A DNA stretch of 64,000 bases from a phage. A program made the position numbers and the translations under genes. Each line of letters opens with the position of its first letter. The first letter of the stretch is position 1. Positions 4,589 through 56,419 of this stretch are shown piece by piece. Location of the stretch: the sequence record NC_100371.1. One strand, written 5' to 3'. A model generated the notes under the pieces. The model was not told the DNA's origin, did not search any database, and saw only the letters and a program-made list of their open reading frames with translations.

Positions 4589-4780
4589 TTAAGCTTTTTG
4601 CTCTTCGTTTTTAACGTGGTCAGGGTGCTGGCAACCCCACCGGAGCGAGATGAATTTGCTAATAAGCTGGGGGCAGGCTACTGAAGGTGCGTATATCCAC
4701 GCATACCATTCAGGAAGCGTATCATTGTACCCCATATGAATAAACACCCCAGTCATCACTGCCATGCCTATGTAGACCAT
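4589..4780 (-). CDS. hypothetical small protein (63 aa), possible fibre accessory
   Basis: Short ORF directly downstream of fibre gene 4864..5910; no motif recognised. Confidence 0.25.
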   Translation of the reverse strand: MVYIGMAVMTGVFIHMGYNDTLPEWYAWIYAPSVACPQLISKFISLRWGCQHPDHVKNEEQKA

Positions 4781-4863: not shown

Positions 4864-5910
4864 TTAAGCATAAGATATAGTGATCCATTGACCGTTTACA
4901 AATTTTTGAATGGCACCAGTCCAATAGTCGCCTTGATACGGGTGTTTATAGGCGTAATTGCCGGAGCACATTACATGCCCAGGGTATACTCTTGATTCTC
5001 TGTAGGTGGTTCTGAAACGGTTTGCTATCCTTACATCTTCAACACCCCTACTAGGCATAGGAATAGTAAGGTTACCACTGCTATCTGCGCTACTACCATT
5101 TACCCTGCGGACCACGTTTCTCCCACCAACTGTTGCATATTGACCCCTGGCGGTGTTATCGTTACAATCCACTCTTCCACCTATTTGAGCGCTGCCGCAG
5201 GATTGTTGTCCATTAACAGTGGCTCTTGGTATCGTTACCGCATTAGCATTTGCAGAGGAGCTTTTTGCATCATTGCATTCAAGATTCCCTTGGATAGCCA
5301 GTCTTGCACGGTTGGCAGTTATAGCATTAAGCTTCATAGCCGAAAACACAGGCTGCCCACCAGAAGGTTGAAATCTCCAACGGAAACCGTCTATTTGGTG
5401 AGAAGGATCATCAAGGTCTGTGCCGTCAGCGCCGCCGATGTTGTCCATAATCCAGAAATCCATCATCGTTTTGTCTGGAGTTATGGTGGTGTATATCGCT
5501 GCATTGTCTGTTGACGCGGATGCAAACTCGATTCTTTGAAGACCCAAAGTTTGAGTCTGGGTCATTGTGTCTCCAGTCTTGTCAACATACAGGTCATCCA
5601 TTTCTTCAGGCGAGTATACATTGAGGACTTTACGTGCAGCAGCTTTGTCTGGAACGTCTGCCAGATTATTAGTGACCCTTAAGAATCTATTATCCCATCC
5701 AGGGACAACATCTTCTGTTAAATGCTTTAGCCACGCAGAGAGCATGTGGAGTTCAAAGTTAACAACTTCACATGCTATCCTTTGTGTCATATCCCAACCT
5801 TTCAATCTCTCTTCTTTGTTCGGTTGAGACTTGTTCAACTCTCCTGTATTTTCAAGCACAACATCCTGATTGGCCCAAATATCGAGAGGGATAACTGGTT
5901 TAGTCATCAC
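4864..5910 (-). CDS. tail fibre protein, paralog A (348 aa)
   Basis: N-terminal (PLDIWA...KGWD) and C-terminal (KFVNGQWITISYA) segments shared with 6923..7963; contains VDKTGDTMTQ. Confidence 0.5.
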   Translation of the reverse strand: MMTKPVIPLDIWANQDVVLENTGELNKSQPNKEERLKGWDMTQRIACEVVNFELHMLSAWLKHLTEDVVPGWDNRFLRVTNNLADVPDKAAARKVLNVYSPEEMDDLYVDKTGDTMTQTQTLGLQRIEFASASTDNAAIYTTITPDKTMMDFWIMDNIGGADGTDLDDPSHQIDGFRWRFQPSGGQPVFSAMKLNAITANRARLAIQGNLECNDAKSSSANANAVTIPRATVNGQQSCGSAQIGGRVDCNDNTARGQYATVGGRNVVRRVNGSSADSSGNLTIPMPSRGVEDVRIANRFRTTYRESRVYPGHVMCSGNYAYKHPYQGDYWTGAIQKFVNGQWITISYA

Positions 5911-5997
5911 ATTCTCCTGAGAAAATTCCTTAAGGACTATTTTAACACTTTAGAGAACAAAATGCAAGAACGGCATCCTTACCGTTCTTACCTTTGT

Positions 5998-6312
5998 TTA
6001 CCTTTTACTATGCTCTACAAGCATGTGCAAAATCTTTTGTACATCAGCTCGGATACCGGAGACATCTGTCCTGACATCTTGCTTAAGGTCGTTAATATCG
6101 GCCTCTAGCTTACTTAACCGGGTCTCGATAATGGAATCAAGTCTATCTTTTGTAACCATGCTATTTTTCACTAAAATGAGGTCTTTCTCCAGCTCATCCA
6201 ACCTCTTGGAAATGCCTTTCCATTTGGTGTGCCACTGGTTGAAAGCCCATACACAGATCGGGACAACGGTACCCATGCAGATACCGTACAATGCCGCCAA
6301 ATCCAACTCCAC
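5998..6312 (-). CDS. small membrane protein with N-terminal TM helix and coiled coil (104 aa)
   Basis: Hydrophobic segment ALYGICMGTVVPICVWAF followed by heptad-like charged region (LDELEKDLILVKN...LSKLEADINDLKQDV). Confidence 0.4.
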   Translation of the reverse strand: MELDLAALYGICMGTVVPICVWAFNQWHTKWKGISKRLDELEKDLILVKNSMVTKDRLDSIIETRLSKLEADINDLKQDVRTDVSGIRADVQKILHMLVEHSKR

Positions 6313-6323
6313 AACACCTCCTC

Positions 6324-6908
6324 TTAGAGGGTAGGTCGTTCCGGGAAGAAAATGTCAGGGGCTTTAGATGTATCTATTTCAAGAAGTTTTACCCTGTACA
6401 TTTTCAAATCTCTGATGTTGCGTTTTTGGTCATCAGTAAGATCGTATTCAAGGTCAATCATGTCTTGATAGGCACCAATTCTAGCAGTAGCCCAAGCAAG
6501 TTCTGTCTCTATGACACCCTCTGCCTGTTGAACAAAGAATTCATTGTCTGTGACAAATTCATCACCAACTAAACGCAAAGCGTCGTGGTGGAGCATAATG
6601 TTTTCTGGTACCTCTTCTTTTTTGGCGATAACCACACGAAGACCTGGAGCAGGCCACAAGGCATCAGGTTCTTCTGTAGATGTCTTAAGAATACCCTTCT
6701 CGTCAACAAGTAAGAAGATACAGCCGGGATTTTCTTGTCGCAGTGTTCGTGATTGCACATACCAATCGCCATCATCATTACGTAAAAAATATCCAGTGTA
6801 TGCTGTGTAATCCTCAACCTCCTGAGGAGTCAGCTCCTTGGTCTCCTTGTTGGTGTAGTATTCGCCAGATCCCGGTTGGTAAAGTTTAAACTCTTGAAGT
6901 ATTTTCAT
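6324..6908 (-). CDS. hypothetical protein (194 aa), possible fibre assembly/accessory
   Basis: ORF immediately downstream of fibre paralog B; acidic; no motif recognised. Confidence 0.3.
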   Translation of the reverse strand: MKILQEFKLYQPGSGEYYTNKETKELTPQEVEDYTAYTGYFLRNDDGDWYVQSRTLRQENPGCIFLLVDEKGILKTSTEEPDALWPAPGLRVVIAKKEEVPENIMLHHDALRLVGDEFVTDNEFFVQQAEGVIETELAWATARIGAYQDMIDLEYDLTDDQKRNIRDLKMYRVKLLEIDTSKAPDIFFPERPTL

Positions 6909-6922
6909 GCTAGTCCTCCGAT

Positions 6923-7963
6923 CTACGCATAATTAACAGTGATCCATTGACCATTTACAAGTTTTTGTAAAGGTCCTGCCCAGTAGGTTGAACCACGCAT
7001 CTCTTTTTTATCACCAAAATGCCAACCTGTGACAACGTAGCCGTTGCGAACTGGAGATTCAGAAACACCATCAACAAGTCTTGCACCGATTCTGATATCC
7101 TGTACCCCTGTCTGCGGGATGGTGATCGTTACATCTCCGTTACCGTTAGCCGTCACTCCATTCACAGAGCGCACCACATTTCTGTTACCGACAACACAAT
7201 GCTGGCTTCTTACAACCATACTGTCACAACTTGCACCGCCATTAACATATACGGACCCAGCGGTCAACTGACTAGCCACATTACAGTTGGTGAATGTTGC
7301 TGTGCTGCTGATGGTAAGGTTGTTACACCGCATGTTATCGACAACTTCAACATTACCTACCACTTTCAACAGCGCACGGTTAGCCGTGATCGCGTTCAGG
7401 TACATCAAAGTGAACTCTGGATTAATGTCTGGCTGAGTTGGCTGGAATCTCCAACGAAACGCATCTACTGTAGATGTGCCACCATCATCAAACGCCCCAG
7501 TGTTATCACTTAACCCAAAGTCGAGAGTTGTCTTATCTGGACCAATAGTTGTCTCTATCCAAGCCTTATCTGTCTCGGCAGCTTTAAAGTTGATACGCTG
7601 CAAACCTAAGGGGCCTGTCATTGTATCGCCTGTAACTTTTACATACCTGGCGTCTGCCTCTTCCTTAGTGATAATCCCAAGGTTTCTACGGGCAACAGGA
7701 ATGTTCAAAAGATCGCTCAGGTTATTATCACGTACCAGATAACGGCCCTCTTGGGCAGGGATCTGCTCGTCAGCAATATATTTTGCCCAAGTCCCGAGCA
7801 TATTGAAAATATAGTTAAGTTCTTCACATGACGGCTTTTGACCAAGATCCCAACCTTTTCTCCACAAATCATCAATCGGGCGTAGCCTGTTCTGTCTGTG
7901 GGTGTTAGGCAGAACCTGATCCTCCTCTGCCCAAATCTCTAATGGAAAACTAGGTTTTGACAT
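6923..7963 (-). CDS. tail fibre protein, paralog B (346 aa)
   Basis: Shares N-terminal (PLEIWA...KGWD) and C-terminal (KLVNGQWITVNYA) segments and VKVTGDTMTG with 4864..5910; central region divergent. Confidence 0.5.
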   Translation of the reverse strand: MSKPSFPLEIWAEEDQVLPNTHRQNRLRPIDDLWRKGWDLGQKPSCEELNYIFNMLGTWAKYIADEQIPAQEGRYLVRDNNLSDLLNIPVARRNLGIITKEEADARYVKVTGDTMTGPLGLQRINFKAAETDKAWIETTIGPDKTTLDFGLSDNTGAFDDGGTSTVDAFRWRFQPTQPDINPEFTLMYLNAITANRALLKVVGNVEVVDNMRCNNLTISSTATFTNCNVASQLTAGSVYVNGGASCDSMVVRSQHCVVGNRNVVRSVNGVTANGNGDVTITIPQTGVQDIRIGARLVDGVSESPVRNGYVVTGWHFGDKKEMRGSTYWAGPLQKLVNGQWITVNYA

Positions 7964-43741: not shown

Positions 43742-44654
43742 ATAGTCTATCTGCTCCCATTCGAATTGCGTCGTTTATGTTCGGGCAAGGTCGCTAGTCT
43801 TGCCCCGCCATTTTCAGGCAGCTGCATGTCTCCATGCAGACCAGACTATATCTTATGAATGTGCAAATACTCTGCTGCTCTAAGAATGGTTTCCTCATCC
43901 TCTTGGAAGAAACCTAAAGCTCTGTTGCATTTATCACAAAGCAACCCTCTTACAGCACCAGTTTTATGGTCATGATCAACACAAAAGAAATCTCTGTACC
44001 CTTGCGTCCTATACTCATCAAGAGATATTCTACAAATGGCACACTTATGATCTTGATCTGAGAGTAAGCGATAGTATTCATCTTTTGTTATGTGAAATTT
44101 CTTCTCAATCTGATAAAACTTTTCACACATCTTACACCTGTTCGTAACCAGATACACTTTACCATAGTCACGTTTTGTGTAAAAACTATCAGCAAGCATA
44201 CTTTCATGACAAGATTTACATTCAAAAAGCTCACCTTTCTTCAGTAAGTCTTGAATAAAAGATGCTGCATCATCTCTCTTAACCATATTTTTGTTTCTAC
44301 GAGATCCATTCTTCCTGTAGTACATATAGCATTCCTTGCATGTACCGGAGTATCCATCCTTGCTCTTAGATGATAAAAAGAAATCATCAAGAGGTAGAAC
44401 TCTTTGGCAATCCATACATTTTTTAGTATTACACATTCACCCTCCCGTTTCGAATCGCTTGATTCTACGTCTTTCGACTAGTCGTTGAACGTTCATCCTT
44501 TCGGATGCTTCGCTGCGGATTATCTAAATTAACACACTGTTACCATACCTTCGATCTCTCTTCGAAGCCTCTATCATGTTACCATGACAGGTTGGTGGTG
44601 TCAATAATAAAGATTTCCCCGCAATTAGGGAGGTTTTACGAGAGCTACAAATTA
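43742..44654 (-). mobile_element. group I intron (td-like) in terL, carrying HNH homing endonuclease ORF
   Basis: Minus strand begins UAAUUUGU... right after exon codon GGU (in-frame UAA); contains P-like AAUUGCGGGGAAA, Q-like AAUCCGCAGC, R-like GUUCAACGACUAGUC and S-like AAGAUAUAGUCU in canonical order. Confidence 0.7.
43846..44436 (-). CDS. HNH homing endonuclease (intron-encoded, 196 aa)
   Basis: Own GGGAGGG RBS; several CxxC zinc-finger pairs and HNH/EndoVII-type motif CVDHDHKTGAVRGLLCDKCNRALG; stop codon UAG lies inside the S element. Confidence 0.7.
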   Translation of the reverse strand: MCNTKKCMDCQRVLPLDDFFLSSKSKDGYSGTCKECYMYYRKNGSRRNKNMVKRDDAASFIQDLLKKGELFECKSCHESMLADSFYTKRDYGKVYLVTNRCKMCEKFYQIEKKFHITKDEYYRLLSDQDHKCAICRISLDEYRTQGYRDFFCVDHDHKTGAVRGLLCDKCNRALGFFQEDEETILRAAEYLHIHKI

Positions 44655-45080
44655 ACCCTCATCGAAGCAAACCATGGTGTACTCAAGTCCTTGATGGTTA
44701 AGCTTATCTTGGACATACTCCATGTGGCAGTATTTTACAACAGCTCCTTTTTTGCTCCTGTCCCACTTGCCAGTGCTCGGATCAAACCGTGGAAAAATAA
44801 ACTTATGATCCTTCTCTCTGAACTTTGGTTTAATGTTTTCAGGCAGATCACTGTAAATAGCTACTGCTTTAGGCCATAGCCCACCCTCACCTTCCAACTG
44901 TGGAGTTGTTCTTCGGAACATAACCACAGAGCTGTGTGGGTCATCAATAATTTTAAGCGGCATCAACTGCAGGAGGAACGACTTACCTGACCCAGCCGCA
45001 CCACCAATGACAAGAATGTCTGCATCGTTTTCCAGGATCATCTTCTGCTTTTCAGAACACGGTCCGTAAATCTTAGACAT
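44652..45080 (-). CDS. terL: terminase large subunit, exon 1 (N-terminal ATPase part)
   Basis: Walker A ILVIGGAAGSGKSF and Walker B MVCFDEG; ORF ends at TAA directly after DEG, which I read as the first intron codon. Confidence 0.7.
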   Translation of the reverse strand: MSKIYGPCSEKQKMILENDADILVIGGAAGSGKSFLLQLMPLKIIDDPHSSVVMFRRTTPQLEGEGGLWPKAVAIYSDLPENIKPKFREKDHKFIFPRFDPSTGKWDRSKKGAVVKYCHMEYVQDKLNHQGLEYTMVCFDEG

Positions 45081-45367
45081 TAACCTCTCTCCTTTGGAAA
45101 CAGTGTTCTAATATAGTCTTGCAAAATGATCAATTTAGCCCTATCATTACTGCAAGACAGGTTATTATCCCTCATAATGCCAGAATTCACCGCATCAGGC
45201 GCACCTTTCTTTAAAGGTATAGCTTTAGCAGGAGGCTTCATAGCACCCTCGGGAGGTTTAACAATCAACCTTCCTACATCCGGAGGGTCAATCTTGTATT
45301 CTCTCTCAACGCTGGTTGCACACCCACACAATAACAAGCACAAAACAACCAGTGCAGTAACTCTCAT
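45080..45367 (-). CDS. o-spanin-like outer-membrane lipoprotein (95 aa)
   Basis: Signal peptide with Cys-containing lipobox-like LLLCGC; Pro-rich (PPDVGRLIVKPPEGAMKPPAKAIP); overlaps i-spanin stop by 4 nt. Confidence 0.5.
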   Translation of the reverse strand: MRVTALVVLCLLLCGCATSVEREYKIDPPDVGRLIVKPPEGAMKPPAKAIPLKKGAPDAVNSGIMRDNNLSCSNDRAKLIILQDYIRTLFPKERG

Positions 45368-45762
45368 CGAACCTCCTGATTGATACTCTCATTATAAATA
45401 TCTATTAGCTGATCAGGAAGTGTTGACTTCTTACCTTCAGGAGATTGGAGGTAGATAATCTGCTTTTCTTTGCCTGCCTTCTCAGCCATATTTAATTTAT
45501 CCTGTAGATCAGAAAGAGATTTTTCAAGGTTTTTAACCTCCTCTGCGTGGCCCATTTTAATTTTGTCGGCCTGCTTTTGTTGTTGGTCAAGGATCCGTTC
45601 CCACTTTAACTCTGTTGCTGACACACCTTCTTGATAAGCATCATTGAGCTTAGAGTTAAACCAATACACGGCCCCAAGATAAGCCATACCTATAGCCGCT
45701 GCAAAAACTAAACCTTTTATGATCCCTCTGTGTTTACTCATCAATGTTAAAACTGAAATCAT
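45364..45762 (-). CDS. i-spanin-like protein (132 aa)
   Basis: N-terminal TM helix (GIIKGLVFAAAIGMAYLGAVYWF) followed by coiled-coil region; GGAG RBS. Confidence 0.5.
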   Translation of the reverse strand: MISVLTLMSKHRGIIKGLVFAAAIGMAYLGAVYWFNSKLNDAYQEGVSATELKWERILDQQQKQADKIKMGHAEEVKNLEKSLSDLQDKLNMAEKAGKEKQIIYLQSPEGKKSTLPDQLIDIYNESINQEVR

Positions 45763-55948: not shown

Positions 55949-56419
55949 ATGAAACTTGATAAAAATGTTCAACGAAAAGCTTTCTTGGATATGATCGCAT
56001 ATTCAGAAGGTACAGATAATGGTAGACAACCTACCAAGGATCGGGGCTATGATGTCATAGTCGGTGGCAAGCTGTTTAGCGATTACAGTAAGCATCCAGG
56101 TGTTTACGTTAAGCTAAATGCTAAACTTACCTCCTCTGCTGCTGGGCGTTACCAGATTTTGGAGAAGTTTGCTAAACACTATATGGAACAGTTAGGATTA
56201 CCAGATTTTGGCCCTGCCAGTCAGGACAAGATTGCATTGCAACTGATCCGTGAGTGTAAGGCTCTCACTGACATTGACGAAGGTCGCATCCACGAAGCTA
56301 TCCGCAAATGCCGTTCCCGCTGGGCTTCGTTACCCGGTGCCGGATACGGTCAGCATGAACAGAAGATTGAGAAGTTGATCGAGGTGTTTAAAAAGGCAGG
56401 CGGCATTGTCCTAGATTAA
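55949..56419 (+). CDS. endolysin, lambda R-like lytic transglycosylase
   Basis: Near-identical blocks to lambda R as I recall it: QRKAFLDMIAYSEGTDNGRQ, GYDVIVGG, AGRYQ, WASLPGAGYGQ. Confidence 0.8.
   Translation: MKLDKNVQRKAFLDMIAYSEGTDNGRQPTKDRGYDVIVGGKLFSDYSKHPGVYVKLNAKLTSSAAGRYQILEKFAKHYMEQLGLPDFGPASQDKIALQLIRECKALTDIDEGRIHEAIRKCRSRWASLPGAGYGQHEQKIEKLIEVFKKAGGIVLD

Follow-up and report, generated by a model that had tools for sequence, protein, structure and literature searches.

XhlA (PF10779) of PBSX is a small coiled-coil lysis protein that is tethered to the membrane by one transmembrane (TM) helix and is found beside the two-TM holin XhlB, and the T4 holin T has an N-in, C-out orientation with a large periplasmic domain. 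T4 gp57A and fibritin are small or trimeric soluble coiled coils that assist fibre assembly, and the DUF1640 proteins combine an N-terminal head with a C-terminal anchor. The gp25 protein of phage Mu, the 'releasin', comprises 99 amino acids (aa), is oriented N-out, C-in, leaving four residues in the periplasm and 73 in a cytoplasmic domain, and is needed for lysis (Chamblee et al., 2022, PMC9239132). Here we analyse gp31, a 104-aa protein encoded at positions 5998..6312 on the minus strand of a 64,000-nucleotide stretch of phage DNA (NC_100371.1; 'the window' refers to this whole stretch). The open reading frame (ORF) and its TM helix have been annotated since 2013, as rV5 gp31. What is new in our reading is the predicted topology, a beta-layer and trimer signature in the coiled coil, membership of a three-gene membrane cluster, decoupling from the tail fibre assembly protein Tfa, and a connection to the missing holin of these phages. 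We tentatively propose that gp31 is a component of a lysis module that acts together with gp29, a neighbouring holin candidate.

Gene 31 runs from a GTG start (6312-6310) to a TAA stop (6000-5998) and is the orthologue of rV5 gene 31, in family phrog_5345. A Shine-Dalgarno sequence, GAGGAGG (6317..6323, minus strand), lies 4 nt 5' of the GTG and directly past the stop codon of the Tfa gene (6326-6324), a tight spacing that is coupling-like. Its GGAGG core is kept in five relatives (L001, L002, L003, L012 and L014), and the GTG, the GGAGG and the 12 residues that precede the first internal methionine are all shared with lineages of 86% and 52% amino acid identity; an ATG stands at the equivalent position in other genera. 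Given this conservation, the 92-aa gp31 model of the FV3 RefSeq record is a truncation. The ratio of non-synonymous to synonymous substitution rates (dN/dS) lies between 0.03 and 0.07 for several pairs, indicating strong purifying selection, and comparison with the 86%-identical relative gives 45 synonymous and 22 non-synonymous differences. The initial annotation would have been refuted by an untranslated ORF; the conserved start, the Shine-Dalgarno sequence and the excess of synonymous changes argue for a real gene, and by these measures gp31 is a translated and strongly constrained late gene. An antisense ORF of 103 aa (6023..6334, plus strand) is open in the window and in close relatives and is interrupted by three stop codons in the 86%- and 52%-identical lineages; as it is unconserved we rejected it as a gene and regard it as a by-product of the codon composition of a coiled-coil gene.

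The TM helix of gp31 spans residues 5-24 (6241..6300, minus strand), with the four residues M-E-L-D before it and a flank rich in lysine and arginine (K/R) after it. The maximum Kyte-Doolittle hydropathy in a 19-residue frame is 1.91, at residues 5-23, and a helix is present in all of the approximately 85 family members scanned, with values from 1.85 to 2.46. In rV5 gp31, TMHMM and Phobius each call one transmembrane domain, and the protein is listed as 'membrane protein, 104 aa' (Kropinski et al., 2013, Table S3). The single N-terminal TM helix of the initial annotation is thus upheld, and the same family-wide helix supports its suggestion of membrane targeting. The residues ahead of the helix follow the pattern M-x-x-D, with D4 invariant in the family and no K/R in any member, whereas the 15 residues after it contain three to five K/R in every member and four in the window protein (residues 25-39). 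As a control, the same K/R count was made for the i-spanin of the phage (45364-45762), and this gave the opposite, expected N-in, C-out polarity. Under the positive-inside rule, a K/R-poor start followed by a K/R-rich flank predicts that gp31 is oriented N-out, C-in, such that just the four residues MELD would be periplasmic and the C-terminal domain of about 80 residues, which carries 16 K/R and 14 aspartates or glutamates in 80 residues, would form a cytoplasmic coil.

The C-terminal 75 residues of gp31 form an amphipathic helix. The initial annotation had described a long heptad region, and the coiled coil stands but its periodicity is not uniform: heptads cover residues 31-51, a conserved motif follows, and residues 58-104 are hendecad-like. 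In the heptad segment (residues 31-51; 6160..6222, minus strand) column conservation places residues 31, 34, 38, 41, 45 and 48 at a and d positions, and the hydrophobic fraction in the family is 0.42-1.0 at these columns, compared with 0.11 at non-core columns. The downstream coil (residues 58-101; 6010..6141, minus strand) has a/e/h positions at residues 58, 62, 69, 73, 76, 80, 84, 87, 91, 95 and 98, where the core columns are on average 0.79 hydrophobic against 0.20 for the non-core columns. A power spectrum of residues 58-104 gives a period of 3.65 residues, and only 35 of 5000 shuffled sequences matched the observed power. An indel of seven residues, one heptad, distinguishes gp31 between genera, in agreement with this division of the coil. 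An AlphaFold2 (AF2) model of the monomer (mean pLDDT 66, hence of low confidence) is helical throughout except for an interruption at residues 55-58, which also agrees with the division; a Foldseek search of the PDB with this model returned nothing, and beyond the site of the interruption the model is uninformative.

Between the two coils lies M-V-T-K-D-R-L-D (residues 52-59; 6136..6159, minus strand), the best-conserved motif of the family, with the consensus M-V-T-K-D/E-x-(I/L)-D. Among 72 gp31-family sequences V53 is found in 67, T54 in 60 and K55 in 67, with V53, K55 and D59 invariant or nearly so. The motif resembles the beta-layer type (compare MATKDD). Elements of six or nine residues can break coiled-coil helices into a three-residue beta-layer, and every construct of that study was trimeric; such elements follow the consensus [aliphatic]-A-T-K-[polar]-[DE], with the register restarting at e after the layer (Hartmann et al., 2016, PMC4786415). 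Compared with this consensus, gp31 has valine for alanine, and most family members have serine, lysine or arginine at the sixth position; V-T-K also occurs in the beta-layer of MPN010. The register of gp31 fits such a break, with L45 at a, V48 at d, S51 at g, M-V-T at the place of a layer, K-D-R at e, f and g, L58 at a and I61 at d, whereas a continuous heptad frame would place the invariant K55 and D59 on core positions. When the family profile was compared with all PDB sequences, the first match was 6h9l (E 2.9e-4), whose MATKEDIEAL repeats belong to a protein that forms trimers, and the next were the GCN4-MATKDD fusions 5apx and 5apw; in each the MVTKD of gp31 aligned with MATKD or MATKE. 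Known beta-layer coils have a motif similar to that of gp31, and share with it the order abcdefg, three beta residues, efg and a, and, in MPN010, hendecads downstream. A membrane-anchored beta-layer coiled coil, as predicted for gp31, is also found in DUF1640 proteins, from which gp31 differs in having its anchor at the N-terminus and in lacking a head domain. Since heptads, a beta-layer-type motif and hendecads make up a design known only from trimers, gp31 is predicted to be a trimer. Its C-terminal domain would be a parallel coiled coil of three heptads, one beta-layer-type element and about four hendecads, and the whole protein probably forms a trimeric stalk of roughly 10 nm that is tethered to the membrane. 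A predicted beta-layer coil with an N-terminal anchor would offer a compact new example for structural work on coiled coils.

With this architecture gp31 resembles Mu gp25 closely. Both are proteins of about 100 aa with an N-terminal TM helix, four residues outside and a helical cytoplasmic domain of about 75-80 residues, in the case of gp31 by prediction, and both are late gene products that are required for plaque formation or lysis without being a holin by themselves. The two differ in that no sequence or profile similarity is detectable between them and gp25 has no V-T-K beta-layer motif. They also differ in setting: genes of the DUF2730 family are found within five genes of the endolysin gene in transposable phages, whereas gene 31 lies about 50 kb from it, in a tail-fibre operon of a large virulent myovirus, and Mu gp25 releases an endolysin with a signal-arrest-release (SAR) domain, which the endolysin of the window phage does not have. 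The PF10805 (DUF2730) model matched neither gp31 nor any of 72 family members at E<=0.1, and matched Mu gp25 itself at 2.5e-13. Profiles of the Mu gp25 relatives, of the phrog_462 proteins represented in Pseudomonas phage Bise, and of the family of phAPEC8 gp089 were compared with the gp31 profile by hhalign, with reversed sequences as controls. Homology of gp31 to DUF2730 (2% probability, control 2%) and to phrog_462 (1%, control 19%) was rejected, whereas the comparisons of gp31 with the phAPEC8 family (30% against a control of 3.5%) and of the phAPEC8 family with phrog_462 (28% against 0.4%) are no more than suggestive. We thus view gp31 as a variant of the membrane-tethered cytoplasmic late proteins that Mu gp25 exemplifies, without sequence membership in the families described so far.

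Another look-alike of gp31 is gp089 of phAPEC8 (phrog_15210, Stephanstirmvirinae). It is 111 aa long, is encoded, like gp31, in the slot after a short tail fibre (STF) and Tfa, and combines a hydrophobic helix at the N-terminus with a coiled coil whose centre carries the motif Y-A-T-K-A-E-L; its 'lipoprotein' label is a mis-annotation. The two proteins give reciprocal weak hidden Markov model (HMM) matches, and their similarity is marginal, with hhalign probabilities of 30-52% and E values of 1e-4 to 5e-4 while reversed controls reach 19%. The phrog_1322 gene of phAPEC8, the counterpart of gene 29, is about 4 kb away from gp089 and not adjacent to it. XhlA shares with gp31 the arrangement of a coil tethered by one TM helix and encoded near a two-TM holin-type protein, although its TM helix is C-terminal and that of gp31 N-terminal. 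The Pfam XhlA model matches gp31 at E 0.014 and 16 bits, below the cut-off of 34.7; a link to XhlA by way of the metagenomic protein P0018 (hhalign 55%) was dropped, P0018 not being a member of Pfam XhlA.

One point in favour of a lysis role for gp31 is the make-up of the lysis genes of this phage. The endolysin (156 aa, AYSEGT motif; 55949-56419, plus strand) begins with MKLDKNVQRKAFLDMIAYSEG, in which no hydrophobic, TM or SAR segment was found. A soluble endolysin of this type requires a canonical holin, which according to the LL12 paper 'could not be positively identified' in rV5-like phages. The initial annotation had noted that gp31 lies outside the lysis locus, which is correct in that the phage has no single one, the endolysin and the spanins (45080-45762) being encoded at separate sites. 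Lysis genes can also be found in fibre operons: the T4 holin gene t sits immediately after the tail-fibre gene 38 in the late fibre operon. In keeping with a holin-type protein, gp31 is small, has one transmembrane domain and a charged, hydrophilic C-terminus, and is encoded in a predicted late operon.

Transposon data narrow the candidates further. In the HIDEN-SEQ preprint, for plaque formation by phage Bas54 (MaxBurger) on E. coli K-12, bas54_0037 (gp31; 102 of 104 residues identical to the window protein) was hit at 1 of 20 TA sites and bas54_0039 (gp29) at 0 of 19, and both were scored 'Essential', as were the two short fibres, Tfa, the endolysin and the spanin pair. The 20 sites of bas54_0037 are spread along the gene, one of them within the stop codon. 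By contrast, bas54_0115, the equivalent of the rV5 'putative holin' gp129, tolerates insertions in the same data (mean count 430). The transposon has no terminator, and in that preprint the authors argue against widespread polarity; here, polarity on gene 30 is unlikely because a terminator-like hairpin and a late promoter separate gene 31 from it. The same source counts 15 of 44 essential Bas54 genes as lacking annotation, and on its scoring gp31 and gp29 are the essential small membrane proteins that remain in the gp31 region. The 4589..4854 gene (minus strand) encodes the gp29-family protein, which has two predicted TM helices and matches phrog_1322 at E 6e-22. In the Mu-like Pseudomonas phage Bise, a phrog_1322 homologue occupies the holin slot (L009 3468-3710), with a soluble M15 endolysin on one side and an embedded Rz/Rz1 pair on the other; this homologue matches weakly by tblastn (E 4e-4) and at E 1.2e-19 with the phrog_1322 HMM. 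After Rz/Rz1 and before the small terminase gene, Bise encodes a 92-aa protein with an N-terminal TM helix and a coiled coil (phrog_462, labelled 'lipoprotein'; L009 4201-4479) that is the positional equivalent of Mu gp25 (L016 2219-2518); it did not match Pfam DUF2730, and profile comparison with that family gave a probability of only 7%. The need of the endolysin for a canonical holin, the tolerance of gp129 to insertions and the holin slot of the Bise homologue together make gp29 a holin candidate.

Gene order and sequence divergence tie gp31 to gp29 as well. Outside Vequintavirus the order is STF, Tfa, a gp31-like gene (104-112 aa), a polytopic phrog_7451 protein (130-157 aa), the two-TM phrog_1322 protein (84-91 aa) and a long fibre, as seen in Seunavirus, Certrevirus, Avunavirus, Mydovirus, unclassified Vequintavirinae and the Aeromonas Plateaulakevirus, and in several genera the gp31-like and phrog_7451 genes overlap by 4 nt. 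In Vequintavirus the phrog_7451 slot is taken by the gene for a second short tail fibre (STF2) with its own late-promoter motif, and a search of the 64-kb window found no phrog_7451 homologue. Four TM residues of gp31 that are otherwise near-invariant, K10, W13, F18 and G22, are replaced in Vequintavirus, the genus without phrog_7451 in the slot, which hints at contacts between TM helices. Between GAP31 and Mydo, identity is 24% for Tfa and 50% for STF, against 88% for gp31, 79% for gp29 and 77% for the baseplate; as judged from these values gp31 evolves with gp29 and the baseplate and is decoupled from the often-swapped Tfa.

A holin-like protein and an assembly factor, both suggested in the initial annotation, are our two leading models. 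We tentatively favour a lysis role for gp31 because of the missing holin, the essentiality of gp31 and gp29, the Bise cassette, the architecture shared with Mu gp25 and the co-evolution of gp31 with gp29 and the baseplate. The holin function of gp29, its interaction with gp31 and the topology given above are inferred. According to this model, gp31 would act in the inner membrane with gp29, a protein resembling class II holins, and in most genera with phrog_7451. The holin proper would be gp29, forming the lesion that releases the soluble endolysin, and gp31 would be either a membrane-tethered cytoplasmic cofactor that organises or licenses this lesion or a subunit of it; phrog_7451 could serve as a dispensable regulator of the module. 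Such a part for gp31 would be comparable in function, though not by homology, to those of Mu gp25 and PBSX XhlA. Phages of the rV5 type are widely used in biocontrol and therapy against E. coli and Salmonella, and their sole published holin candidate is dispensable by the HIDEN-SEQ scoring, whereas gp31 and gp29 are by that scoring small, essential, non-virion membrane proteins hidden in a fibre operon. If a lysis role is correct, an entire phage subfamily would have its missing holin system located, and cytoplasmic lysis cofactors tethered to the membrane, of which Mu has so far provided the known case, would extend beyond the transposable phages.

A number of points weigh against this assignment. 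The putative lysis roles of gp31 and gp29 are deduced from context, and the call of essentiality stems from a preprint. No DUF2730 relationship of gp31 was detectable (its hhalign probability of 2% equals that of the reversed control), Pfam gave no match, and the XhlA model in particular stayed below threshold (E 0.014). The tightest conserved linkage of gp31 is with STF and Tfa rather than with phrog_1322: in Vequintavirus gene 31 and gene 29 are separated by the second fibre gene with its own promoter, and in phAPEC8 it is the look-alike gp089 that comes after Tfa, with phrog_1322 about 4 kb upstream. Trimeric beta-layer coils are typical of fibre proteins and not of known lysis proteins, and holin systems usually evolve fast, whereas within genera gp31 shows high conservation. 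To regard phrog_1322 as a holin family is itself a step that draws on where the gene lies in a single phage group and on a weak match (tblastn E 4e-4; phrog_1322 HMM E 1.2e-19).

The main rival explanation, in our view only a little less likely, is that gp31 is a membrane-anchored assembly factor for short tail fibres of the T4 gp12 type. The trimeric coil would then serve as a template or platform on the cytoplasmic side of the inner membrane, where it would nucleate trimerisation of the conserved N-terminal or shaft region of the fibres, or dock fibres to nascent baseplates, with Tfa handling the C-terminal receptor-binding part. In every lineage examined gene 31 comes directly after STF and Tfa, its Shine-Dalgarno sequence adjoins the stop codon of Tfa, and the transcription unit ends with it. 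In phAPEC8, gp089 occupies the same slot after STF and Tfa, with the canonical Y-A-T-K-A-E motif and away from phrog_1322, although the similarity of gp31 to gp089 hardly exceeds the noise of reversed sequences (controls up to 19% probability). Beta-layers occur commonly in phage fibres (PMC4786415), and fibres are trimers. In the HIDEN-SEQ data, gp31 is essential like STF1, Tfa and STF2, and like Tfa it is a non-virion protein: peptides of gp31 are absent from the mass spectrometry table of the rV5 virion, and the 26 virion proteins of CB7 (Certrevirus) include the flanking fibre proteins 31 and 36 but neither Tfa (CB7_32) nor CB7_33-35, the membrane-protein genes as mapped by gene order. On the other side, gp31 does not co-vary with Tfa or STF (24% and 50% identity, where gp31 retains 88%), and a role in fibre assembly leaves unexplained both the conserved pair of membrane-protein genes downstream and the TM changes in the genus without phrog_7451. 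We have likened this role functionally to T4 gp57A and fibritin, and the fibritin matches to gp31 (E 0.003-0.065) are at the level of coiled-coil noise. We are not aware of any fibre chaperone that is anchored in a membrane, those known to us being soluble, and this also weighs against an assembly factor. Were the assembly role correct, it would reveal a membrane-bound step in tail-fibre assembly. The more specific proposal, that gp31 is a membrane-anchored trimeric template which couples assembly of the short tail fibres or baseplate to the cytoplasmic face of the inner membrane, we regard as unlikely; it would nonetheless constitute a new kind of phage morphogenetic factor, kept after STF and Tfa in rV5-, phAPEC8- and Plateaulake-like myoviruses.

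A less probable option again is that gp31 has another essential role at the inner membrane, for instance in providing a site for tail or baseplate assembly or in the takeover of the host membrane, perhaps with phrog_7451 and phrog_1322. This would be in accord with a protein that is membrane-bound, non-virion, late and, on the preprint data cited, essential, and with a cluster whose three families carry no functional annotation. However, it is a residual category to which no specific observation points, and the phage still needs a holin, for which few candidates are left.

The initial annotation had also suggested superinfection exclusion. A superinfection-exclusion or immunity moron comparable to T5 Llp or phi80/T1 Cor would suit a small membrane protein in a fibre module, and PHROGs assigns the neighbouring phrog_1322 to its category 'moron, auxiliary metabolic gene and host takeover'. 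This is nevertheless very improbable: the Bas54 orthologue (98% identical) is scored essential on a laboratory host in the HIDEN-SEQ data, gp31 is a universal, syntenic backbone gene of the whole subfamily under strong purifying selection, the predicted topology exposes just four residues outside the cytoplasm, and PADLOC gave no match beyond coiled-coil noise. With its essentiality, its universal presence and a predicted location almost wholly in the cytoplasm, gp31 does not behave as a moron. Least credible of all is an Rz-like i-spanin with an N-terminal TM helix and a periplasmic coil, to which gp31 is superficially alike in architecture and to which the phAPEC8 look-alike is linked by a weak match to the Rz-like phrog_739 (E 1.2e-3), since a bona fide overlapping pair lies elsewhere (45364-45762 and 45080-45367), the charge polarity of gp31 is opposite to that of the phage's own i-spanin, and no lipobox ORF or lipoprotein partner was found in or beside gene 31; we rejected this identity once the true spanin pair (45080-45762) was found.

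The gp31 family is narrow. The window comes from a Vequintavirus, and the 3.5 kb around gene 31 are 95-99.7% identical to more than 100 Vequintavirus genomes, among them rV5, FV3 and BASEL phages Bas48-54. The phrog_5345 HMM, which represents a family of unknown function, matches gp31 at E 1.1e-48 over residues 1-104 of 104, and the Seunavirus and Certrevirus homologues match it too. A gp31-like gene occurs in about 220 phage records, all of Vequintavirinae or close relatives and in the same position throughout. The family amounts to 87 clusters among 5.8 billion proteins, and an exhaustive HMM search of 1.84 billion representatives gave 13 at E<=1e-3, essentially the gp31 family and repetitive coiled coils. 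Scans of gp31 against Pfam, NCBIfam and PADLOC, with Pfam also run for 72 family members, assigned no family and gave sub-threshold coiled-coil matches alone; those to Gp58, Baculo_PEP_C, XhlA, DUF1664, apolipoprotein, JetC and LmuB were dropped as compositional and sub-threshold. The Caudo_TAP model (PF02413) did not match gp31, only the upstream gene (6324-6908), and the cryo-electron microscopy papers on phiTE and phi92 make no mention of the gp31 protein.

Database labels for gp31 homologues are diverse, comprising 'tail fiber protein', 'ATP synthase subunit b protein', 'very large surface anchored protein', 'DNA polymerase exonuclease subunit' and 'septal ring factor EnvC', all of which are artefacts of coiled-coil similarity or mis-assigned features. 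Sixteen GenBank 'Campylobacter phage' records (MG0656xx, host C. jejuni) are about 95% identical to E. coli rV5-like phages in this region, and 97% in gp31; the C. jejuni host label of these records looks doubtful and perhaps reflects contamination or mislabelling. The metagenomic protein P0011 (207 aa) joins an unrelated N-terminus of about 135 residues to a Seunavirus-type gp31 coil without a TM helix (residues 137-205), and is probably a chimera of gene calling or assembly. In Aeromonas phage 4L372D the greater part of the TM helix is missing from the gp31 homologue (L050 2717-2998), in contrast to that of the related 4L372XY (L051 1420-1740), probably owing to an indel or a start-site problem.

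Upstream of gene 31 are its invariable 5' neighbour, the Tfa gene (rV5 gp32; 6324..6908, minus strand; Pfam Caudo_TAP E 1e-11, phrog_136), and the gene for short tail fibre 1 (STF1; rV5 gp33; 6923..7963, minus strand; phrog_4465 E 4.5e-171, and so annotated in BASEL). Downstream is STF2 (rV5 gp30; 4864..5910, minus strand; phrog_4465 E 1.8e-163), and the placement between two fibre cassettes in the initial annotation agrees with this arrangement. In relatives the full order is a lateral fibre (690 aa), STF1, Tfa, the 104-aa protein, STF2, an 88-aa protein and a second lateral fibre (581 aa). A pattern scan detected a terminator-like hairpin of 12 pairs (5964..5991, minus strand) with the tail ATTTTGTT, 7 nt after the gp31 stop codon; its predicted RNA fold has a dG of -22 kcal/mol and a z-score of -6.0, and the stem is maintained by differing sequences in the diverged L012 and L014. 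The position of the hairpin shortly past gene 31 indicates that the STF1-Tfa late unit ends with this gene. Ahead of STF2 there is a late-promoter-like motif (5923..5960, minus strand) with the core GTGTTAAAATA (5938-5948), which corresponds to P030, one of the putative late promoters of rV5 (Kropinski et al., 2013, Table S4), and GTGyTAAAATA is kept in L001, L012 and L014.

Near position 4771 the gene 29 frame is broken in the window, which has a 1-nt deletion relative to WalterGehring, FV3 and L012 (ATGGTC-TAC against ATGGTCAAAC). The frame is thereby divided into an N-terminal part of 28 codons and an ORF of 63 aa that starts at an internal ATG, where relatives encode 88 aa. Because the Bas54 orthologue was scored essential, the break is either a sequencing or assembly error or the source of a viable, N-terminally truncated product. 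In two Aeromonas phages a 146-aa polytopic ORF that fits the phrog_7451 slot by position and architecture is unannotated in GenBank (L050 3020-3460 in 4L372D; L051 1762-2202 in 4L372XY).

The spanin genes are both on the minus strand, the i-spanin being a 132-aa TM protein (45364-45762) whose gene overlaps by 4 nt that of the o-spanin (45080-45367), a 95-aa lipoprotein with the lipobox LLCGC (MRVTALVVLCLLLCGC); the pair is annotated as such in LL12, CB7 and Bas54. It lies directly 5' of a fragment of the terminase large-subunit gene (44652-45080), which is followed by an HNH endonuclease ORF (43846-44436), and the arrangement of terminase fragment and HNH ORF is consistent with the intron-split terminase reported for rV5.

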